Below, piece after piece: positions 43,105 through 53,387 of a stretch of 64,000 nt of DNA (its first letter is position 1; each line of letters starts with the position of its first letter). Below the pieces are notes generated by a model that was given only the letters and a program-made list of their open reading frames with translations, was not told where the DNA came from and ran no database searches. A program made the translations under genes and the position numbers. This stretch comes from Patescibacteria group bacterium (GTDB lineage Bacteria > Patescibacteriota > Microgenomatia > 2-02-FULL-39-11), in the NCBI GenBank assembly GCA_023379265.1, contig JAMCUI010000009.1:167802-231801 (forward strand), given 5' to 3'.

Positions 43105-44379
43105 TTAAGCCCTGATAAGGAAATAGATCATGAGTGCTGAAGCGATTGCCATAAAGGCAAAAGTAATCCAGGCAATAATTCTAGACCATTTTCTGCTTTT
43201 ATATCTGCCTACAATTCTTTCGTCATCAGCTAATCTAATGATTATGGCAATAAGCGGTACGGCAATAATGCCATTTAATATTGCAGTATAGTAAAGTGCT
43301 TTAATGGCGTTTATACCAATAATATTCATAAGCGCTCCGATGACGGTTGCGAGACCGATAGTACCGTAAAATACTTTAGCTTCTGCTAGTTTTTTGGCCA
43401 GGCCTTCCTTGAAACCAAAAGCCTCAGAAAATGCATAAGCAACGCTGCCGGCTAATATAGGGACAGTTTGTAGCCCAATGCCGATGATTCCAAAAGCAAA
43501 AAGTATATAGGCGAAGTTTCCGGCAAGAGGTCTGAGCGCCAAAGCTGCCTGTTGGGGTGTTTGGATATCATGCATGCCGTGGTTATAAAGGGTGGCGGTT
43601 GTAGTGAGTATAATTGAAACTGTGATGAGGTTTGAAAAGATCATGCCGGCTATGGTATCTTTTCTCATTCGGTTTACCTCTGTTTCAATTACAGCTGGGG
43701 TTTCTTCAAATTCCTGTATCTTGCCTTCTTTTATTTCTTCTTCCACCTCTTCTGCCGCCTGCCAGAAAAAGAGATAAGGTGAGATGGTAGTGCCCAAAAA
43801 TCCGACCATAGTCATAAGATAAGTCATGTTTAATTCTATGTGAGGTATAAGTGTAAATTTGATTACATCTAGCCAATTTTGTTTTACCAGGATTGCCGTA
43901 ATACCGTATACAAGAAGAGTCAGTCCCATCCACTTGAGATATCGCGAGTATTTATCATAAGGGACAAAAACTTCCATTAGTATGGTGAAAATTGTTACCG
44001 TAAAAAGCCAGAATACAAAAGGAACTCCTAGAAGCATTTCAAGGGAAGCAGCCATAATACCAAGGTCTGCTCCGATATTTACAGTATTGGCTATAAAAAG
44101 AAGTATGATTGAAAAAAAAAGAAGTTTCTTGGAATAGTATTTTCTTATAGTTCCTGCCAGTCCCATACCAGAGACCATGCCGATCCTTCCGCACATTTCC
44201 TGAACTGCGATCATCATCGGAGTGAGGAAAAGGGAAAGAAAATTCAGGCGGTATCCAAATTGTGCTCCGGCGATAGAGTAGGTGGCAATTCCTGACGGAT
44301 CGTCATCGGCAGCACCAGTGATAAAGCCAGGTCCCAGTTTGGTAAGTTTATTCTTGATTAAAAAAAGAAATTTTCTCAT
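43105..44379 (-). CDS. mntH: NRAMP family divalent metal (Mn2+/Fe2+) transporter MntH
   Basis: GPGFITGAADDDPSGIATYS and MIAVQEMCGRIGMVSG Nramp signatures, 11 TM helices. Confidence 0.85.
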   Translation of the reverse strand: MRKFLFLIKNKLTKLGPGFITGAADDDPSGIATYSIAGAQFGYRLNFLSLFLTPMMIAVQEMCGRIGMVSGMGLAGTIRKYYSKKLLFFSIILLFIANTVNIGADLGIMAASLEMLLGVPFVFWLFTVTIFTILMEVFVPYDKYSRYLKWMGLTLLVYGITAILVKQNWLDVIKFTLIPHIELNMTYLMTMVGFLGTTISPYLFFWQAAEEVEEEIKEGKIQEFEETPAVIETEVNRMRKDTIAGMIFSNLITVSIILTTTATLYNHGMHDIQTPQQAALALRPLAGNFAYILFAFGIIGIGLQTVPILAGSVAYAFSEAFGFKEGLAKKLAEAKVFYGTIGLATVIGALMNIIGINAIKALYYTAILNGIIAVPLIAIIIRLADDERIVGRYKSRKWSRIIAWITFAFMAIASALMIYFLIRA

Positions 44380-44585
44380 ATCAATAATTATTTGAATCTT
44401 GTTATTCTAATAATTACTGATTGTTAATATATTTTCAGTCTACTCTCAGCTTTTTGCCTAATGCAATAGGAAGGTGTAATTATAACAGTTATTTTTTATA
44501 CAAAACGTGTATATTTAACTCTTTTTCAGCCAGATTTCAAGATATGAGTTTACTATTTGAATTTTTTATGAGAAAATTGTGAGCT

Positions 44586-45602
44586 ATGGAAGAGTTGGAA
44601 AAAAGACTTCAGGATGTCATTCTGAAAATGAATCTTGAAGAGAAAAAGAAGCAGATTGTAGAGATTGAAACGGCATCAGGAAACCCTGATTTTTGGAAGG
44701 ATAGGGAAAACTCTACCAAGGAGATGAAGAGACTGGCCCATCTTACTAAGCAAGTAAAGGAGATTGACGAAGTACGCAAGTTGTTAAGTGGTGGCAAGCT
44801 AGATGAAGCTAATGAAAAATTGTCATCACTGGAGATGGAACTTTATTTCTCAGGGCTTCATGACGGAGAAGGAGCAATAGTGTCCATACATGCCGGGCAG
44901 GGAGGGACGGAGGCAATGGATTGGACTGAGATGCTTATGAGAATGTATATGCGCTTTATCGAATCCAAAGGCTGGAGTTACGAGGTTATTGATTCCGTAG
45001 CGGGAGATGAAGCTGGTATAAAAAGCGTGACTTTTTCGGTCGGTGAATATTTGGCGTACGGATTTCTAAAAGGAGAGGCGGGAGTACATAGACTTGTTAG
45101 ACAATCTCCTTTTAACGCAGACAAATTGCGGCAGACTTCATTTGCACTCGTTGAGGTTATTCCCATACTCGAAAATACAGGAGAGGTGGAAATAAAGGAT
45201 GATGAATTGGAATGGGAGTTTTTCCGAAGCGGTGGTAAAGGAGGGCAAAATGTAAATAAAGTTTCAACTGCTGTAAGATTGAAACATAAACCTACCGGTA
45301 TTATTGTTGAATGCCAGGAGCAGCGTTATCAGGGACAAAATCGGGAAACTGCCCTTCGTATACTAAGGGGAAAACTATGGCAAATGATGGAGGAACAGAA
45401 AGTAAGACATCTATCTGAACTTAGGGGGAAATTCAAAATGGCTTCGTGGGGTAACCAGATTCGCTCATACGTGCTTCATCCCTACCACCTGGTGAAAGAT
45501 CTGCGAACAGGGTATGAGACTTCTGATAGTAAAAGAGTGCTCGACGGACAAATCGAGGATTTTATAATAAACTACTTGAAAAAATTCGCCACTGTCGTAT
45601 AG
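44586..45602 (+). CDS. prfB: peptide chain release factor 2
   Basis: SPF tripeptide ([14 protein letters not shown]) and [14 protein letters not shown] (GGQ). The reading frame is continuous, with no programmed +1 frameshift site. Confidence 0.85.
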
Positions 45603-45612
45603 TATAGATTAT

Positions 45613-46095
45613 ATGAAAAGATTATTCGGTTCCAAAAGGATAAGTGTGAATGATATTCCCAGTAAGCCTTTGGTACATGAATTATCCAGTTCTGCAAACA
45701 AACCTTTTACCAAAAAATCTCTTGTAGTACTTTTAACTATTGTGGTTGCGGGTGGATTGACGGGTTATCTCTTGTCACGAGCGGTATCAAGGAGTGCTAT
45801 GGTTGGGGGTTTGCAAGGAGGATCTGTCAGTGGGGGTAAAGTGGTAGTGGGAGCAAGTAATGCCAAAAACTTCAAGGATTCTGCAGAGGGTACGCTTGAA
45901 GCCGGTGGTGTAGATGGAGAAGGGACGCATCACCTGGTCAGGCCGGGCGGTCCCAGTCAGAACGTCTACCTGACTTCTTCTGTTCTTGATCTAAATCAGT
46001 TTGTAGGGAAGAAAGTGAAGGTGTGGGGTGAGACTTTTGCAGCGCAACAAGCCGGATGGTTTATGGATGTTGGTAAGGTAGAGGTAGAGAATTAA
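45613..46095 (+). CDS. hypothetical membrane-anchored Gly-rich protein
   Basis: A single N-terminal TM helix followed by a Gly/Val-rich soluble part. No motif. Confidence 0.4.
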   Translation: MKRLFGSKRISVNDIPSKPLVHELSSSANKPFTKKSLVVLLTIVVAGGLTGYLLSRAVSRSAMVGGLQGGSVSGGKVVVGASNAKNFKDSAEGTLEAGGVDGEGTHHLVRPGGPSQNVYLTSSVLDLNQFVGKKVKVWGETFAAQQAGWFMDVGKVEVEN

Positions 46096-46217
46096 AATAG
46101 CGAACTCAGATTGTAAAAGCCGAATGATCTACGGCTACAGGAAAAGTAGTAGATTGATCAGAAAGTTTTGGTTGTAGAAAACTCGTTTTTTGGACTATAT
46201 ATATATTTTCCTCTTTT

Positions 46218-46895
46218 ATGATTCTTTTTGACTCTGTCAGCAAAAAATATTCCAGGAGTACCACTGCTCTGGATGATATCAATTTGAAAGTTGAAGATGG
46301 TGAATATGTTTTTCTGGTCGGTCCATCCGGAGCTGGTAAGACTACCATATTGCGTCTATTGATACGGGATTTATTACCAAATCATGGGACTATTCTTTTG
46401 GATGATTGGGAGATAAATAAGTTGCCAGTGAGGAAATTACCATACCTGCGCCGAAAAGTTGGATTTGTCTTTCAGGATTTTAAGCTTTTGTCGGACAGGA
46501 CTGTAGCGGAAAATATCGCCGTATCTTTGGAGATATTGGGCAAATCGCGAAGCGATATAGACAGAAGAATTGATGAGGTGCTTAAAATTGTCCATCTTGA
46601 TAGTAAGGAAAACCATTTTATAGGGCAGTTATCATATGGAGAACAGCAAAGGGTAGCAATCGGCCGTGCAATAGCCGGGGAGGCAAAGATACTTCTGGCT
46701 GACGAGCCTACAGGTAACCTGGACCCAAAAACATCATGGGAAATTCTTAAAATCATAAGCGATATAAATAAAAGCGGCACGACTGTAGTGATGGCTACCC
46801 ATAACGTGGATATAGTAAACAGTCTAAAAAAAAGAGTTGTCGTATTATCGTCTGGAAAGATAGTCCGTGATGAACACAAGGGAAAATATTCTTAA
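46218..46895 (+). CDS. ftsE: cell division ABC ATPase FtsE
   Basis: GPSGAGKTT Walker A, LSYGEQQRVAIGRA signature, ILLADEPTGNLD Walker B. Confidence 0.85.
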   Translation: MILFDSVSKKYSRSTTALDDINLKVEDGEYVFLVGPSGAGKTTILRLLIRDLLPNHGTILLDDWEINKLPVRKLPYLRRKVGFVFQDFKLLSDRTVAENIAVSLEILGKSRSDIDRRIDEVLKIVHLDSKENHFIGQLSYGEQQRVAIGRAIAGEAKILLADEPTGNLDPKTSWEILKIISDINKSGTTVVMATHNVDIVNSLKKRVVVLSSGKIVRDEHKGKYS

Positions 46896-47820
46896 TATGA
46901 CCAAAAACCGTTCAGTATCATCTATTTCTTTCTTTCAAAGGTTGCGTCGCACGCCATATCAGTCTATTGCCGCAATATTTATGATTTTTATCACCCTTTT
47001 TGTGATGGGAGTGTTTCTATTTATTGCCGGAGGGCTTTCGGGTATATTGACTTATTTTGAATCAAAGCCGCAACTGACCGTATTTTTCAAAGATGAGAAA
47101 GATAAAGCTTCTATAGATACTTTGATCGATAAATTAAAAGCAACCGGTAGGGTTGCTACTTACAAATATATATCAAAAGACCAGGCGCTTGCCATATATC
47201 GTGAACAGAACAAAAACGATCCGCTTCTATTGGAGATGGTGACGGCGGACATACTTCCTGCATCACTTGAAATATCAGCTACCTCCCCTGAGTATTTATC
47301 AGGCCTTGCAGATATAGTAAAAAAAGAACCCGGTATTGATGAGGTAGTTTTCCAGAAGGATGTTGTTGATACATTAGTATCTTGGACTTCAACGGTTAGA
47401 AAGATTGGTATAGTCTTTATATTTTTTCTTTTTATATCCACATTCTTTATACTCTTTACCAGTATAGGTATGAAGATAGCACTGAAAAAAGAAGAGATAG
47501 AGATACTGAAACTTGTTGGGGCAACTCCTTGGTATATCAGAAAACCTTTCATCTATGAAGGTGTAACTTACGGACTTATGGGCGCTACAGGAGCATGGGT
47601 GATAGTTTCTGTCATAATGCTTTATTTATCTCCTTTTATTACTTCATTTTTGAAGGGTATCCCAGCATTGCCGCTTTTGGAAATGTCGGGATTTACCCTG
47701 CAAATCTGGCCGTTTTCTCCGGCAATTTTTTTACTTCTTTGGGTGGTACTGCTTTTGTCAGGTCTTATTATCGGACTTTTTAGCAGTTTGGTAGCAGTGT
47801 CCAGATATTTGAGATATTAA
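46867..47820 (+). CDS. ftsX: cell division permease FtsX
   Basis: Four TM helices with a large first periplasmic loop. It overlaps ftsE by 29 bp. Confidence 0.8.
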   Translation: MMNTRENILNMTKNRSVSSISFFQRLRRTPYQSIAAIFMIFITLFVMGVFLFIAGGLSGILTYFESKPQLTVFFKDEKDKASIDTLIDKLKATGRVATYKYISKDQALAIYREQNKNDPLLLEMVTADILPASLEISATSPEYLSGLADIVKKEPGIDEVVFQKDVVDTLVSWTSTVRKIGIVFIFFLFISTFFILFTSIGMKIALKKEEIEILKLVGATPWYIRKPFIYEGVTYGLMGATGAWVIVSVIMLYLSPFITSFLKGIPALPLLEMSGFTLQIWPFSPAIFLLLWVVLLLSGLIIGLFSSLVAVSRYLRY

Positions 47821-47867
47821 TCAAGATTGGATATCGCGCAGTAATAATGTGATACATCTCCTTATGT

Positions 47868-49085
47868 ATGAGGAAATTCTGGTTACCAATACTTCTTTGT
47901 CTTCCCCTTTTTCTTTTCCTGAATGTTAAAAGCTTAAAAGCTTCATCTTGTCCTCGAACAGATCCTTGTTCAATCAAGACTGATCCAAATGAAAGAGTAT
48001 CCTGTTATACGGACGTGGTTAATGCCTGTGCCAGCCAAAGGGAGAGTATGGCATCGCAAATAGTTTACCTGACAACAAGAATTGAATTAACCAACGCCAA
48101 AATTGCCGCAACACAAGATAATATCAATCAGTTGGAACAGCAGATAGCTGATTTAGATAGTAAAATCAGCCAATTAGAGAATTCGTTGACTACTATATCA
48201 TCCATGTTTATTGACCGGGTGGTGGCAACGTATAAATACGGTGGCTTTTCTTTCTTCAATCTACTTTTGGAAAGTAACCAATTTTCAGATTTCTTCAATA
48301 GGTATAAATATGTCCAGATAGTTCAAGCTCACGACAGAAGGCTTCTTTTTCAGTTGCAAAACAGCAAGATAAACTATCAGGATCAAAAACAGTTGCGGGA
48401 GGAAAAAAAGGTGGAATTGAACAGGGCTCAGGCCACATTACAGGCAGAACAGGCGACATTAGCGGTACAGAAAAAAGAAAAGGAACTTTTCCTTGAGACA
48501 ACCCAAAACAACGAAAATATCTATAGAAGTGAACTTGAAGCTGCACAGAAGGAGGCTGAAAGCATCCAACAGGCAGCCTCAATACTGTCCCAAGCAGGCG
48601 TACCCAGGCATGTTTCCAAGGGAGATGTGATAGGTATAATGGGTAATACCGGTTTTTCTACGGGTCCGCATCTTCATTTTGCTGTGTATAATCTGAACGA
48701 GGCAGATTTGAATAAATTCAATTTTGAGAGCGGGTACGAAAACCCCTTTAACGATCTTGTTTCCAGACCGCTTATATTTGAGCCAAATTCCTGTGATGAC
48801 GTGTCGGCAACTGGCAGAATTGTAAAGACCATAGGCAGCGGGTTATGGGATTGGCCTCTAAGCGACCCAATCATATCACAATGTTTTGGACATACACCTT
48901 ATTCGTGGAGATACCAATCGGGCATTCATAGCGGAGTGGATATGTATGATGACTCAGATACGCTCATAAGGGCAGTGGATTCGGGAGACGCATATTATTA
49001 TCACGGGGGCCAGACTGCCGGAAACGGAGTATTTATATTCCATCCAAATGGAAAAATGACATTATACTGGCATTTAGCCAATTGA
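47868..49085 (+). CDS. EnvC-like coiled-coil M23 (LytM) peptidase with a circularly permuted catalytic motif order
   Basis: Signal peptide and ~200-aa coiled-coil. GNTGFSTGPHLHFAVY (HxH block) lies ~100 aa before GIHSGVDM (HxxxD block) and the terminal FHPNGKMTLYWHLAN. This order is reversed relative to canonical M23. Confidence 0.8.
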   Translation: MRKFWLPILLCLPLFLFLNVKSLKASSCPRTDPCSIKTDPNERVSCYTDVVNACASQRESMASQIVYLTTRIELTNAKIAATQDNINQLEQQIADLDSKISQLENSLTTISSMFIDRVVATYKYGGFSFFNLLLESNQFSDFFNRYKYVQIVQAHDRRLLFQLQNSKINYQDQKQLREEKKVELNRAQATLQAEQATLAVQKKEKELFLETTQNNENIYRSELEAAQKEAESIQQAASILSQAGVPRHVSKGDVIGIMGNTGFSTGPHLHFAVYNLNEADLNKFNFESGYENPFNDLVSRPLIFEPNSCDDVSATGRIVKTIGSGLWDWPLSDPIISQCFGHTPYSWRYQSGIHSGVDMYDDSDTLIRAVDSGDAYYYHGGQTAGNGVFIFHPNGKMTLYWHLAN

Positions 49086-49975
49086 TAGATGGTGGCGGCA
49101 TGTTTATTTTCAGGGTAATAATTTCTTTACTGTTTGTTTTTTCTGCCTGCCTTTTTTTGACGGGATGCAAAGTAATTTCTGCTAATATCATTATAGATAA
49201 CTACGGCGATTCGGAAATTGAAGGGTATGAAGATGAATATGAAGTAGGAGTCAGAATAGATGTCAATTCGGCAGATGGTACTAAGTACTACTTAAGAGGT
49301 GTATTTTTCGAGCCGGATACTAGCCGGTACTGCGGTTACACCTGGAATGGTTCAGGTTGGTACAACGGTCCGTATACATCAGAGGAGGGTTGGACAAAAC
49401 TGATGACAGTTACTATATCGTCTTCATCAGCCGCGGTCAATCTGAAAGCCAAACTTGACCGGGATGACTCCCGCTGCCAAAGGAATGGGGTCTATAATTT
49501 TAAGATCCAGCGGTATACCCAATCTGGTTCATCCAGTTTTGACAACCAGAACATGCTTTCCATAAATGTTAAAATTCCTCCTTCAGCCGTGCCGCCAAGT
49601 ATTACCCCAACCAATGTCAAACCTTCAGTTACAAAGTCTATCCTCCGGCCGACAAATACTCCTTTGCCAAAGGCTACCGAAAGATCTATTCTTCCCACTT
49701 CGGAAATATTCAATAAAGATAGGGAGGTCTTATCCTTGGAAAATGAGGTCGTGGTTGAGACAGGTGATTTTACAAGCGCCTTATCGACATTGTCTTCAGG
49801 TTTTGTTTCTACCCAAAGCGGAAAAGAGGTCTCTGTAAGCGGTAAGATCGAGAAAATAAATGGTCTAAAGTCGGATGTAAATTTCCCCGCAATCTTTCTG
49901 GCCATTGGCGGACTTTTTATGGGAAGTGCGGCATTTGTAAGTCTGAAGAAAATTAAAAAACCGCAAGGGGAATAA
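49082..49975 (+). CDS. lipoprotein with C-terminal membrane anchor
   Basis: Lipobox LFLTGC, an Ser/Thr/Pro-rich middle region, and a C-terminal hydrophobic helix plus KKIKKPQGE. Confidence 0.5.
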   Translation: MIDGGGMFIFRVIISLLFVFSACLFLTGCKVISANIIIDNYGDSEIEGYEDEYEVGVRIDVNSADGTKYYLRGVFFEPDTSRYCGYTWNGSGWYNGPYTSEEGWTKLMTVTISSSSAAVNLKAKLDRDDSRCQRNGVYNFKIQRYTQSGSSSFDNQNMLSINVKIPPSAVPPSITPTNVKPSVTKSILRPTNTPLPKATERSILPTSEIFNKDREVLSLENEVVVETGDFTSALSTLSSGFVSTQSGKEVSVSGKIEKINGLKSDVNFPAIFLAIGGLFMGSAAFVSLKKIKKPQGE

Positions 49976-50455
49976 TCAAATCATTTTCCTCAGGAATTTC
50001 TTAAAAGGCATATAGCCATAAGACTCCCAGGCCCTTTTACCGATCGGATTTTTTTCCTCGACATAGAGTTCAACATACCGGACATTTTTTTCCTTAAACC
50101 ATGCGTTTGCCATATTTTCTAAGGATTTGCCTACACCTTTTTTCCTGTATGCTGGGTTGATGATAAGGTATGAGATGTGTCCGACATTCTTTGTCTTAAA
50201 CCATGGATAAAGAGCTTTCATAAAGCCAGAGATGAAACCGGAAATGACCGGTTGTCCTCCATTTTCTTCTTCCGATACAAATATGAATTGGTAAGGGGTA
50301 CTAAGTTGCTGGTGTACCCACTGGGCAAACTGGACATCAAAGTCAGGCTCCAGTTGGTAATAGTCAAAGTCAAATACAGTGTGTAGTTCCAGAAGCTGGC
50401 GGCCCAGTTTGACTATGTGGGGAGTATCCTCGGCAGTTGCGGGGCGTATACGCAT
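49976..50455 (-). CDS. GNAT family N-acetyltransferase
   Basis: YLIINPAYRKKGVGKSL acetyl-CoA binding motif. 159 aa. Confidence 0.75.
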   Translation of the reverse strand: MRIRPATAEDTPHIVKLGRQLLELHTVFDFDYYQLEPDFDVQFAQWVHQQLSTPYQFIFVSEEENGGQPVISGFISGFMKALYPWFKTKNVGHISYLIINPAYRKKGVGKSLENMANAWFKEKNVRYVELYVEEKNPIGKRAWESYGYMPFKKFLRKMI

Positions 50456-50563
50456 GATTTATGATTATACACTAATAATATATAAAAGAGTGGGATGTGA
50501 AAAAAGTGAAGTAATCAAAAATTTTGCGAAATATTCATATACAATAATGTTAATGATTAAATT

Positions 50564-50995
50564 ATGACTATACAGACAAATAGTGAAGAGGAGACAAGAA
50601 AACTGGCGGCAGAATTTACCACGACACTTTCCGGTGGAGAAGTGGTGTGTCTTTATGGAGATTTGGGCGCGGGTAAGACGGTCTTTGCTTCAAGTGTAAT
50701 CGATTATTTTCTTCCCAAACAACGAGTTCTCTCCCCTACTTTTATCATTGTGCGACATTATTATCCACAAAAAAGTCAAATAAAAGAGATCTTGCATATA
50801 GACCTATACCGGACAAACCATGAATCTGAGATAAAAGGATTGGGTTTGCCGGATATGTTAAAAAATAAAGATAAAGTCTATATTATCGAATGGGCCGACA
50901 GGCTGGGAGGACTTTTGCCCAAAAAAAGGATAGATATCCATATAGAGACAAAAGATGATAAAAGATTTTTTGAAATAAACGGATGGAAGAGATAA
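50564..50995 (+). CDS. tsaE: tRNA t6A37 biosynthesis ATPase TsaE (YjeE)
   Basis: P-loop LYGDLGAGKTVF, 143 aa, next to tsaC and tsaB. Confidence 0.75.
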   Translation: MTIQTNSEEETRKLAAEFTTTLSGGEVVCLYGDLGAGKTVFASSVIDYFLPKQRVLSPTFIIVRHYYPQKSQIKEILHIDLYRTNHESEIKGLGLPDMLKNKDKVYIIEWADRLGGLLPKKRIDIHIETKDDKRFFEINGWKR

Positions 50996-51588
50996 AAGAA
51001 GCAATAAAAATACTCCGGCAGGGCGGGATAGTAATCTATCCGACAGATACAGCTTATGGTATAGGTTGTAGGATAGATCTTCCTGATTCTGTTCAAAAAC
51101 TGTTTAAGCTGCGGAAGCGTCCGCTGACACAAGCAACACCGGTCCTTGTTGATAGCATCAGGATGGCTCAAGACTACCTTTTCTACCCTATCTCAGATAT
51201 TGTGCGACATATAATAAAAGATTATTGGCCGGGAGCGCTCACTATAGTCTTGCCTGGAAAAACTGATCTCATTCCCCCGCCGGTGCGGGGCAACGGGAAA
51301 AATATAGGCTTTAGAATACCGGATCACGAAATAGCGCTGAGACTCATTTCCGGAGTCGGGGTGCCTATACTGGGTCCTTCTGCCAATTTACACGGACAGG
51401 CTACTCCCTACCGCTTTGAAGATATTGATAAGTTATTGGTGAAAAAGGTTGATTATGTATTATTTGGGAAGTGCAAAGCGGGAAATGTTTCTACAGTCAT
51501 AGATTGTTCAGGCGAAAAATGGAAAATACTCAGGCAAGGTGCGGTTCGTATTAGCGAAAAATATGCAAAACGATATACTATATATTGA
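50983..51588 (+). CDS. tsaC: L-threonylcarbamoyladenylate synthase TsaC/YrdC
   Basis: GGIVIYPTDTAYGIGC YrdC fold signature. 201 aa. Confidence 0.8.
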   Translation: MEEIKEAIKILRQGGIVIYPTDTAYGIGCRIDLPDSVQKLFKLRKRPLTQATPVLVDSIRMAQDYLFYPISDIVRHIIKDYWPGALTIVLPGKTDLIPPPVRGNGKNIGFRIPDHEIALRLISGVGVPILGPSANLHGQATPYRFEDIDKLLVKKVDYVLFGKCKAGNVSTVIDCSGEKWKILRQGAVRISEKYAKRYTIY

Positions 51589-51883
51589 TACAAGCGATAA
51601 CAAAGAAACGGTTGTTGGCCTTCTGACAAAAGGCAAGAAATACCAAATTTCGAAAAAGACTGAGAATACATGGATTTCCCAATCTCTTTTGCCTCTCATA
51701 CGAAAGATTCTTACGTCACATCAAATGGCGTTTTCGGATATAAATGGGATTGAAGTTGTCCGTGGTCCGGGTTCATTTACCGGACTTAGAGTGGGTGTTG
51801 CTGTAGCCAATGCTCTGGGCAAATTGTTGGATATACCGGTCAATGGGAGTAAAGATTTTCAAGCAGAGCCGGTTTACGAGTGA
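51539..51883 (+). CDS. tsaB: TsaB (YeaZ)-like N-terminal domain protein, short form
   Basis: ILYIDTSDNKETVVGL...VVRGPGSFTGLRVGVAVANALG. Only 114 aa against ~230 usual. It overlaps tsaC in another frame. Confidence 0.6.
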   Translation: MRFVLAKNMQNDILYIDTSDNKETVVGLLTKGKKYQISKKTENTWISQSLLPLIRKILTSHQMAFSDINGIEVVRGPGSFTGLRVGVAVANALGKLLDIPVNGSKDFQAEPVYE

Positions 51884-51947: not shown

Positions 51948-53387
51948 ATGAGGAAACTGCCCCTATTCCTTTTTGCCTTTTTGTACTGTTTATTGGTTTT
52001 TCTTTTTTTTCCGGCAAAACTGACAGCTTTGGAATTGCCATCTCCTCCCAATCTGCACGGACAGACTGATTCTGTAATCATCAAATATAAAAGGAATTTA
52101 TCTTTAGACGAGAGGCTTTCTGTCCACCGACTTATTAGAGTCCAAAGTATAAAAGGGAATATAGCCAGGCTTGGCGCCGAAGCGGTCAGGTTATCATCCG
52201 GTCAGACGCCGGAAAAAGCAATTGGATTATTGGACAAAGATCCCAGAGTCGCTTATGCAGAGCCAGATTATAAGGTTTATACAGCTGAGGATACCAATGA
52301 TCCGGGGATTTTGCAGGGACTGCAGTGGGGGATGTATAAAATAAATGCCGCTGGAACGGGTATAAGCGCCTGGAATCTGGCAAAAAGTAGCCCTTCAGTG
52401 GAAATTGCCATAGTGGATACGGGTATCGATCAAAGCAATGAAGACCTGAAGGGAAAGATTGTCGCCAATCACAATTGCACTGACAGTCCTACAGCGGATG
52501 ACCTTTTCGGACACGGAACGCATGTGGCAGGAATCGCTGCTTCCGAAACAAACAATGGCGTGGGCGTTGCGGGAGTTGGTTACAAGGCCTCTCTTATAAA
52601 CGCCAAAGCTCTAGGAGATGATGGTTCAGGCTATTATTCGTGGTTGGCAAATTGCATCATCTGGTCTGCCGACAACGGAGCCAATGTGATAAATATGAGC
52701 CTGGGTGGGCCCTATTCTTCCCAGACTCTTGAGGATGCGGTAAATTATGCCTGGAATAAAGGGGTAGTAATTGTAGCTGCAGCGGGGAACAGTAATTCTC
52801 CTTATCCTTTCTATCCGGCATATTATTCCCATGTGATTGCTGTAGCTGCTACAGATATAAACGATTACCGTGCCTCTTTTTCCAATTATGGCCGTTGGAT
52901 AGCAGTAGCTGCGCCAGGAGTATCCATATATTCGACTCTTCCGGACCATCCCAATGCCATAGGTGTGGAAAATTATGGATATCTATCGGGCACTTCCATG
53001 GCTTCTCCCCATGTAGCCGGACTGGCAGGGCTTCTTTTCGGCATAAACGGTATGACTAATACACAGGCTGTAAACGATATTGAAAACGGTGCAGACTATA
53101 TACCCGGTACGGGATTTTATTGGCAATATGGCCGTATTGACGCCTTGGCCAGTGTACAAGAAGCATTAAACAATCAGATTTCTGTGCCAACTGTTACGCC
53201 TATTCCTACAGCTACTCCTACTCTTAAACCTTCTCCTACTCCGACACTGACTCCGACTCCAAAGCCGACTTCTACGCCTGTGCCTACTCCGACCTCTCCA
53301 TCCGGTGTTACACCGACGCCTACACCCTATAATCCTTTTGCGCGTTGGTGCGCCAGATTTCCCATCTTTTGCAACGGAAAATTCTGA
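51948..53387 (+). CDS. secreted subtilisin-like serine protease (S8) with Pro/Thr-rich C-terminal linker
   Basis: Signal peptide, catalytic triad in IVDTGID (Asp) / HGTHVAGIAA (His) / GTSMASPHVAG (Ser), and PTxTPxP repeats near the C-terminus. Confidence 0.85.
   Translation: MRKLPLFLFAFLYCLLVFLFFPAKLTALELPSPPNLHGQTDSVIIKYKRNLSLDERLSVHRLIRVQSIKGNIARLGAEAVRLSSGQTPEKAIGLLDKDPRVAYAEPDYKVYTAEDTNDPGILQGLQWGMYKINAAGTGISAWNLAKSSPSVEIAIVDTGIDQSNEDLKGKIVANHNCTDSPTADDLFGHGTHVAGIAASETNNGVGVAGVGYKASLINAKALGDDGSGYYSWLANCIIWSADNGANVINMSLGGPYSSQTLEDAVNYAWNKGVVIVAAAGNSNSPYPFYPAYYSHVIAVAATDINDYRASFSNYGRWIAVAAPGVSIYSTLPDHPNAIGVENYGYLSGTSMASPHVAGLAGLLFGINGMTNTQAVNDIENGADYIPGTGFYWQYGRIDALASVQEALNNQISVPTVTPIPTATPTLKPSPTPTLTPTPKPTSTPVPTPTSPSGVTPTPTPYNPFARWCARFPIFCNGKF

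Follow-up and report, generated by a model that had tools for sequence, protein, structure and literature searches.

Several secreted partner proteins of the FtsEX system have been described, and those of the EnvC, PcsB, CwlO and RipC class share one build, namely a signal peptide, an antiparallel coiled-coil hairpin and a C-terminal domain of hydrolase type. In the current view of the solved complexes of FtsEX with EnvC and with RipC, ATP hydrolysis in FtsE is relayed through FtsX to the coiled coil. EnvC, studied in Escherichia coli and Vibrio cholerae (PDB 6tpi, 8hd0 and 8tzl), has a LytM domain with the canonical order of motifs and is a catalytically degenerate activator of amidases. PcsB of Streptococcus pneumoniae, CwlO of Bacillus subtilis and RipC of Mycobacterium tuberculosis (PDB 8idc) carry CHAP or NlpC/P60 cysteine peptidases, not M23 domains. 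In this study we report a gene of the same general build at positions 47868 to 49085 (+ strand) of a 64,000-nucleotide (nt) stretch, referred to below as the window, from the Patescibacteria group bacterium assembly GCA_023379265.1 (contig JAMCUI010000009.1). The gene directly follows ftsE and ftsX, and its 405-amino-acid (aa) product carries an M23 (LytM/lysostaphin-type) zinc peptidase domain whose two parts stand in reversed order. On the whole, this protein is probably a peptidoglycan hydrolase that is secreted, coupled to FtsEX and equipped with a circularly permuted M23 domain, in a Candidatus Gottesmanbacteria member of the candidate phyla radiation (Patescibacteria).

Circular permutation has a precedent in the wider set of peptidoglycan peptidases, where it swaps the order of catalytic residues in NlpC/P60 enzymes such as the YaeF/YiiX and LRAT-like proteins (PMC6403190; permuted NlpC/P60 peptidases are also the subject of Xu et al. 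2011, as cited in PMC13552848), but this concerns another fold, with a cysteine peptidase mechanism and no link to FtsEX. In the open-access literature we found no natural circular permutant described for M23, LytM, EnvC or lysostaphin, an earlier mention elsewhere being possible; permutation is not mentioned in a 2022 review of M23 peptidases (PMC9662197), nor M23 in the main text of the 2026 CIRPIN permutation survey. For FtsEX in Patescibacteria, the open-access literature gave a paper on Patescibacteria genetics that has no text on FtsEX or M23. The enzyme family and the regulatory system are known; the topology is new and conserved.

Circular permutation of the M23 domain

The motifs of the protein are found in the order HxH (aa 268-270), HxxxD (aa 354-358) and YxHL (aa 400-403), which departs from the collinear order HxxxD, YxHL, HxH of canonical M23 domains. 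This reversal had been pointed out in the initial annotation, and both of the motif blocks quoted there are present, GNTGFSTGPHLHFAVY at aa 259-274 and FGHTPYSWRYQSGIHSGVDM at aa 340-359, with the C-terminal end reading ...GKMTLYWHLAN up to aa 405. The spacing of about 100 aa given for the two blocks has to be corrected, the distance between them being 65 aa (84 aa from H270 to H354). The segment that is C-terminal in other M23 domains is here placed first (aa 244-297; 48597 to 48758, +) and includes the V..GD.IG hairpin, the GNTGFSTGPHLHF strand with the catalytic H268 (48669-48671) and the zinc ligand H270 (48675-48677), and an NP..L tail. It is followed by a permutation linker of 28 aa (aa 298-325; 48759 to 48842, +), which leads from the old C-terminus to the old N-terminus. 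The normally N-terminal segment is placed last (aa 326-405; 48843 to 49082, +), with WP..ISQCFG, H354-x3-D358 (48927-48941) and the terminal strand MTLYWH402LAN, in which H402 is encoded at 49071-49073.

Profile and pairwise comparisons agree on this division. Pfam PF01551 matches the protein in two stretches (E-value 5.6e-15, 55.8 bits against a cut-off of 28.7), and the best of them, aa 247-276, falls in the C-terminal third of the profile (positions 61-90 of 96). When the protein is compared by phmmer with all PDB chains, aa 316-404 correspond to the upstream two-thirds of canonical M23 domains and aa 247-273 to the segment immediately downstream in those chains; in 6muk_A, for example, residues 229-316 pair with aa 316-404, and residues 323-349 with aa 247-273. 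We then rejoined the two parts in the canonical order, aa 316-405 followed by aa 244-300. This construct gives one contiguous match to the Pfam M23 profile (positions 2-90 of 96, 65.8 bits) and single-stretch alignments to PDB chains, with E-values of 1.9e-12 (3slu) and 2.5e-12 (6muk), compared with 1e-7 to 3e-8 in the native order, and no segment of the M23 core is missing or duplicated after rejoining. Since a contiguous match is obtained with the rejoined sequence alone, the native one matching in two pieces of reversed order, the 405-aa protein is, by homology, an M23 protein and topologically a permuted variant of it. The comparisons thus show a true circular permutation of the hydrolase domain, as the initial annotation had proposed.

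The break point lies between '...LYWHL' and 'V..GD.IG', in a place that is a loop in canonical enzymes ('lYaHLs..~~v~~Ge~IG~vG~TG~STGPHLH'). Accordingly the last helix of the coiled coil enters the V..GD.IG hairpin and the HxH strand after about three residues, which puts its end beside the active-site strands, and the chain terminates two to three residues past the catalytic H402. In the alignments, H402 of LYWHL is matched with 'lyaHL' of 6muk and 3slu and equals LytM H260 by motif, and H354 and D358 (HSGVD) are matched with the HxxxD of PDB M23 chains. Compared with the LytM/lysostaphin-type structures (PDB 2b44, 4qp5, 6muk, 3slu and 5j1l), the spacing of H-x3-D, Y-x-H-L and G-x-T-G-x-S-T-G-P-H-L-H is the same once the domain is de-permuted, and the chemistry is expected from the sequence to be the same also; the differences are the permutation itself, the 28-aa linker, the fused coiled coil and the lack of SH3b or LysM targeting domains. 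The closest PDB entries are canonical M23 domains, and none is closer. No second M23 domain was found in the window.

Conservation of the permuted family

We next consider the homologues. A homology search returned 1186 hits, and the best 120 of them, which are about 405 aa long and have 44-98% identity, are all permuted (alignments A1 and A2), with many labelled as Candidatus Gottesmanbacteria or Microgenomates. An exhaustive HMMER search of 1.84 billion cluster representatives gave 107 clusters at E-values up to 1e-30. The order of motifs was surveyed in 148 new representatives of 50%-identity clusters among the top 150 hits: HxH precedes HxxxD in 93 of them and the canonical order occurs in none, the other 55 being fragments, members with motifs missed by the search patterns, or matches to the coiled coil only. 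Counted at 50% identity, the permuted M23 family comprises at least about 90 clusters, and the labelled members come from several lineages of the candidate phyla radiation. In public annotations they are named 'peptidoglycan DD-metalloendopeptidase family protein', 'CwlO-like' or hypothetical.

In a diverse alignment of 100 members (24-51% identity to the query), H268, H354, D358 and H402 are found in all 100 members and H270 in 99, which bears out the statement of the initial annotation that all zinc ligands are present, in permuted order. The lengths between fixed points vary in a characteristic way. From H402 to the C-terminal end there are exactly two residues in 71 members and never more than seven, and the stretch that bridges the two former termini (P293 to P330) ranges from 10 to 37 aa; the distance from H354 to H402 is typically 47-51 aa, with a maximum of 73, and the junction where the coiled coil runs into the first hairpin (E216 to G252) is conserved in length, with an interquartile range of 34-36 aa. 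A free C-terminus directly after H402, a variable linker and constrained catalytic spacings are the geometry that would be expected of a circular permutant. A side observation concerns the linker: C309 (48792-48794, in the linker itself) and C339 (48882-48884, in the SQCFG strand) co-occur, with both present in 8 members, neither in 91 and only one of them in a single member, and this pattern suggests a lineage-specific disulfide that may staple the linker.

Predicted structure and export

The full-length AlphaFold2 model, built from an alignment of 121 sequences, has a mean pLDDT (predicted local distance difference test) of 86.8. Helices at aa 61-125, 129-135 and 139-243 are modelled as an antiparallel coiled-coil hairpin (aa 61-243; 48048 to 48596, +), presumed to be the FtsX-binding module, and are followed by a beta-rich domain at aa 247-401, with pLDDT below 50 solely at aa 346-351. 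A model of the domain only (aa 236-405, 108 sequences) reaches a pLDDT of 95.7 and a predicted template modelling score (pTM) of 0.91, so the two M23 halves are predicted with high confidence to form one rigid unit. When this domain model was searched against the PDB with Foldseek, no significant match was obtained (all E-values above 0.5), a result that is uninformative and probably reflects a dependence on residue order. An order-dependent aligner, when given a permutant, captures the longer collinear half alone.

At the N-terminus, a Sec signal peptide is predicted from the sequence at aa 1-26 (MRKFWLPILLCLPLFLFLNVKSLKAS; 47868 to 47945, +), since inspection finds a basic N-terminus, a hydrophobic core and a small-residue site 'LKA-S', and we infer that the protein is exported. 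We also considered whether the protein is a lipoprotein and rejected it, with C11 lying too early and no lipobox being present. The signal peptide is followed by a Cys-rich segment (aa 28-55; 47949 to 48032, +), recognised in the alignment and in the AlphaFold2 model, where short helices occur at aa 33-36 and 40-55 and the pLDDT is about 91-93 over aa 31-50. Conservation of its four cysteines, C28, C34, C46 and C54, is at least 90% among the 121 close homologues and does not extend to distant members.

Association with ftsEX

The gene stands at the end of a compact group. The ftsE gene, for the FtsEX ATPase (46218 to 46895, +), matches NCBIfam TIGR02673 with 266.2 bits against 264.85 (E-value 2e-79) and Pfam ABC_tran (E-value 1.7e-34). 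Its end is overlapped by ftsX (46867 to 47820, +), coding for the membrane subunit with an extracellular domain, in which Pfam detects FtsX_ECD (E-value 2.7e-17) and the FtsX permease domain (E-value 1.5e-9), and which matches the NCBIfam FtsX models at E-values of 1.9e-57 and 2.6e-54, under the equivalog cut-offs. The M23 gene starts 47 nt past ftsX. It had been noted before that the gene directly follows ftsE-ftsX, and this is right; the accompanying description as the 'EnvC position' is inexact, since E. coli K-12 has rpoH after ftsYEX and carries envC elsewhere. Compared with EnvC, the present protein is permuted, keeps all five catalytic and zinc residues, and is encoded next to ftsEX.

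To see how general this arrangement is, loci were collected from one genome per species with the closer alignment A1 as the seed, and the 80 loci returned were scored by translating all open reading frames and searching them with the FtsE, FtsX and M23 proteins of the window. Permuted proteins are encoded in 12 of the 80 loci (L001-L012), and all 12 lie directly downstream of ftsE-ftsX, with prfB kept upstream in 10. The synteny argument is therefore stronger than had been recognised, and we take it as strong evidence for a functional link with FtsEX. Nine of the 12 loci are labelled Gottesmanbacteria, Microgenomates, Levyibacteriota, Collierbacteria, 'Patescibacteria group', Berkelbacteria or Saccharibacteria (the last with three metagenome-assembled genomes, MAGs). 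The remaining three (L003, L004 and L008) are MAGs deposited as Gammaproteobacteria or Pseudomonadales.

As a separate matter, these three MAGs carry the prfB-160aa-ftsE-ftsX-permuted-M23 cluster of candidate-phyla-radiation type, on a 615-kb chromosome in the case of L003, and L017 is likewise a MAG that has a gene of the coiled-coil M23 type under an 'uncultured Gammaproteobacteria' or 'Pseudomonadales' label. The taxonomic labels of all four look wrong.

The other 68 loci code for coiled-coil M23 proteins of canonical order. Nine of them, all from Firmicutes or Thermoleophilia, adjoin ftsEX (L018, L021, L028, L050, L059-L061, L063 and L079), and like the permuted loci they have the order ftsE-ftsX-(coiled-coil M23), a homologous coiled coil, and both HxxxD and HxH; they differ in that the residues are ordered HxxxD ... 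H ... HxH and the coiled coil enters at the normal N-terminus of the domain. These proteins are probably the closest evolutionary relatives of the permuted ones. Among the canonical M23 loci of the candidate phyla radiation (Uhr-, Magasanik-, Parcu- and Saccharibacteria), none adjoins ftsEX. It is also observed that Saccharibacteria MAGs show both types, the canonical one (e.g. L019, L029, L036 and L047) and the permuted one (L010-L012). The permuted FtsEX-linked and the canonical unlinked forms may be functionally distinct paralogues.

Proposed function and alternative explanations

Taken with the build that it shares with the EnvC/PcsB/CwlO/RipC class, the protein is most likely an active FtsEX-coupled peptidoglycan endopeptidase, activity being expected because the metal and catalytic residues are intact. 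By analogy, we expect such an activity to fit the pattern of single-membrane bacteria, in which PcsB, CwlO and RipC serve FtsEX, rather than the activation of amidases by a dead LytM domain as in EnvC. In the proposed mechanism, both halves would together build a single M23 domain, in which H354, D358 and H270 would form one zinc site and H268 and H402 would be the two catalytic histidines, and the enzyme would cleave the peptide cross-links of peptidoglycan at the division site. The tip of the coiled-coil hairpin would bind the extracellular domain of FtsX, as in the known complexes, and ATP hydrolysis by FtsE, relayed through that domain to the tip, would switch the hydrolase on at the septum.

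A reversed order of motifs could in principle arise from an error of sequencing or assembly or from a frameshift, and the sole prior reason to think of it is that the organism is known from metagenome assemblies; no positive support was found. Independent full-length homologues, more than 120 in number and drawn from many assemblies and sources, match in order and length, the 93 permuted clusters and the 12 loci of different lineages match in order and, for the loci, in synteny, and the open reading frame runs uninterrupted to its stop codon at 49083-49085, so that a common misassembly is implausible at identities of 24-98%. Because close and distant homologues are all permuted and not canonical, a local error is excluded as the source of the order, and we give this explanation a negligible chance. 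Nor is it at all probable that the two parts are non-cooperating half-domains, left over from a tandem M23 duplication as independent non-catalytic modules, with no single active site between them. The structure prediction, which the initial annotation had suggested as a check for two separate incomplete domains, gives one compact domain with the high scores mentioned above; moreover, the would-be active-site residues of both halves are invariant, and the rejoined sequence fits the M23 profile from end to end with nothing lost or duplicated.

The least improbable alternative, although we still regard it as unlikely, is a catalytically silent regulator in the manner of EnvC, NlpD or DipM, whose M23 groove activates another hydrolase such as an amidase. 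In degenerate LytM factors such as EnvC and NlpD, the metal ligands are lost. The conservation of the four invariant residues and of H270 in the 100 diverse members argues instead for selection on catalysis, in support of the earlier suggestion that the protein may be active rather than degenerate, and the FtsEX partners PcsB, CwlO and RipC of single-membrane bacteria are hydrolases themselves. The protein also falls far from the NCBIfam EnvC equivalog (NF008644), with 23.1 bits against a cut-off of 270 and a match confined to the coiled coil (aa 51-214), and hence does not belong to EnvC. The other best-scoring NCBIfam models behave in a similar manner (PcsB, 21.2 bits against 450; Pgp3, 33.6 against 300), and no NCBIfam model reaches its cut-off for this protein. 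A quite different view would be that of a secreted lytic weapon against the cell walls of a host, with the adjacency to ftsEX due to chance or to the needs of export. An episymbiotic life is frequent in the candidate phyla radiation, lysostaphin and similar active M23 enzymes serve as bacteriolytic weapons, and the protein has a predicted signal peptide. However, all 12 permuted loci have kept the gene next to ftsE-ftsX although their lineages are deeply divergent, the coiled coil matches modules of the PcsB/EnvC type, those that dock on FtsX, and a Pfam scan detects no cell-wall-targeting domain typical of bacteriocins, so that a weapon appears distinctly improbable.

Some results should be counted against the reading of one active, FtsEX-coupled permutant that we prefer. 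It is from homology, together with the compact and confident model, that a shared zinc site of H354, D358 and H270 is inferred. A scan of 44000-50700 for promoters and terminators gave counts no higher than in shuffled sequence, and because of this, co-transcription with ftsEX rests on gene spacing and synteny. Finally, in a neighbour-joining tree of the de-permuted domains the permuted proteins are monophyletic in 1 of 50 bootstraps; they are divided between two clades that lie side by side, one with L001-L008 and the other with L009-L012 (Berkel- and Saccharibacteria). This tree is crude, and the M23 domain is too short and divergent, so neither a single nor a multiple origin is claimed from it.

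Origin and possible consequence of the permutation

From the identical break point and the identical synteny of the permuted loci, we nevertheless favour a single origin of the permutation. Most likely, the M23 domain would have been duplicated in tandem early in the radiation and the outer halves then lost, the product being retained with ftsEX. The linker is made up of the normal C-terminal tail of M23 (NP..L) and the normal N-terminal lead-in (G.G.W.WP), and therefore fits the tandem-duplication route. No tandem M23-M23 intermediate was found.

It is also conceivable that the permutation is a functional rewiring and not a neutral accident. The ATP-driven motion of the FtsEX-bound coiled coil would then act as a mechanical gate of the active site, pushing either the hairpin or the terminal strand out of place. 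This suggestion is made because the last helix of the coiled coil is fused, through the junction of conserved length, to the hairpin that leads into HxH, and because the strand with H402 is the free C-terminal end; we offer it tentatively, as an idea that has some chance of being right but is more probably wrong. For EnvC, autoinhibition through a separate 'restraining arm' is described. If the rewiring is true, it would take the place of this kind of autoinhibition, and a distinct mode of FtsEX control would have been retained in several candidate-phyla-radiation lineages.

Neighbouring genes in the window

Besides the three genes discussed above, the surroundings show several features. Between prfB and ftsE there is a 160-aa protein (45613 to 46095, +) with an N-terminal segment resembling a membrane anchor, for which no significant Pfam or NCBIfam family was found. 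Seven of the 12 permuted loci have it in this position (L001 and L003-L008; E-values 1e-31 to 1e-49), and it may be an undescribed partner in the prfB-ftsEX-M23 cluster. The prfB gene itself (44586 to 45602, +; TIGR00020, 405.5 bits) is a single uninterrupted frame of 338 aa including the N-terminal region; the programmed +1 frameshift of the E. coli gene appears to be absent.

Downstream of the M23 gene, an open reading frame at 49100 to 49975 (+), whose start in the list of open reading frames is a TTG at 49082 overlapping the M23 stop codon, codes for a protein with a lipoprotein-type signal (LFLTGC), a region rich in Pro, Ser and Thr, and a C-terminal hydrophobic helix. It belongs to no Pfam or NCBIfam family that could be detected, and is weakly conserved 3' of the M23 gene, in L006 and L002. 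Next to it, a GNAT acetyltransferase is encoded on the opposite strand (49976 to 50455). It is followed by a compact cluster of overlapping genes for the synthesis of t6A (N6-threonylcarbamoyladenosine) at 50564 to 51883 (+), including TsaE (E-value 1.9e-33), Sua5/YrdC (E-value 5.3e-50) and a short 114-aa open reading frame of TsaB/TsaD fold (E-value 2.4e-14), and by a secreted subtilase of family S8 at 51948 to 53387 (+), with a fervidolysin-like prodomain and a tail rich in Pro and Thr.

Significance

The M23/LytM proteins are among the most studied cell-wall enzymes, including lysostaphin, LytM, EnvC, NlpD and ShyA, and a permuted topology is new there. Such a family is under-described by pipelines that depend on residue order: it appears as two partial Pfam hits, reaches no NCBIfam model at cut-off, bears generic names or none, and is blank in Foldseek. 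A radiation-wide, FtsEX-linked family of permuted M23 proteins is notable and easily testable, and current models stand. For bacteria in which cell division is almost unstudied, it provides a candidate for a septal hydrolase under FtsEX control, predicted to be active and not a regulator like EnvC. It is in addition a natural experiment on how far the site at which a catalytic domain is joined to its regulatory coiled coil can be shifted, which bears on the transmission of force by FtsEX.

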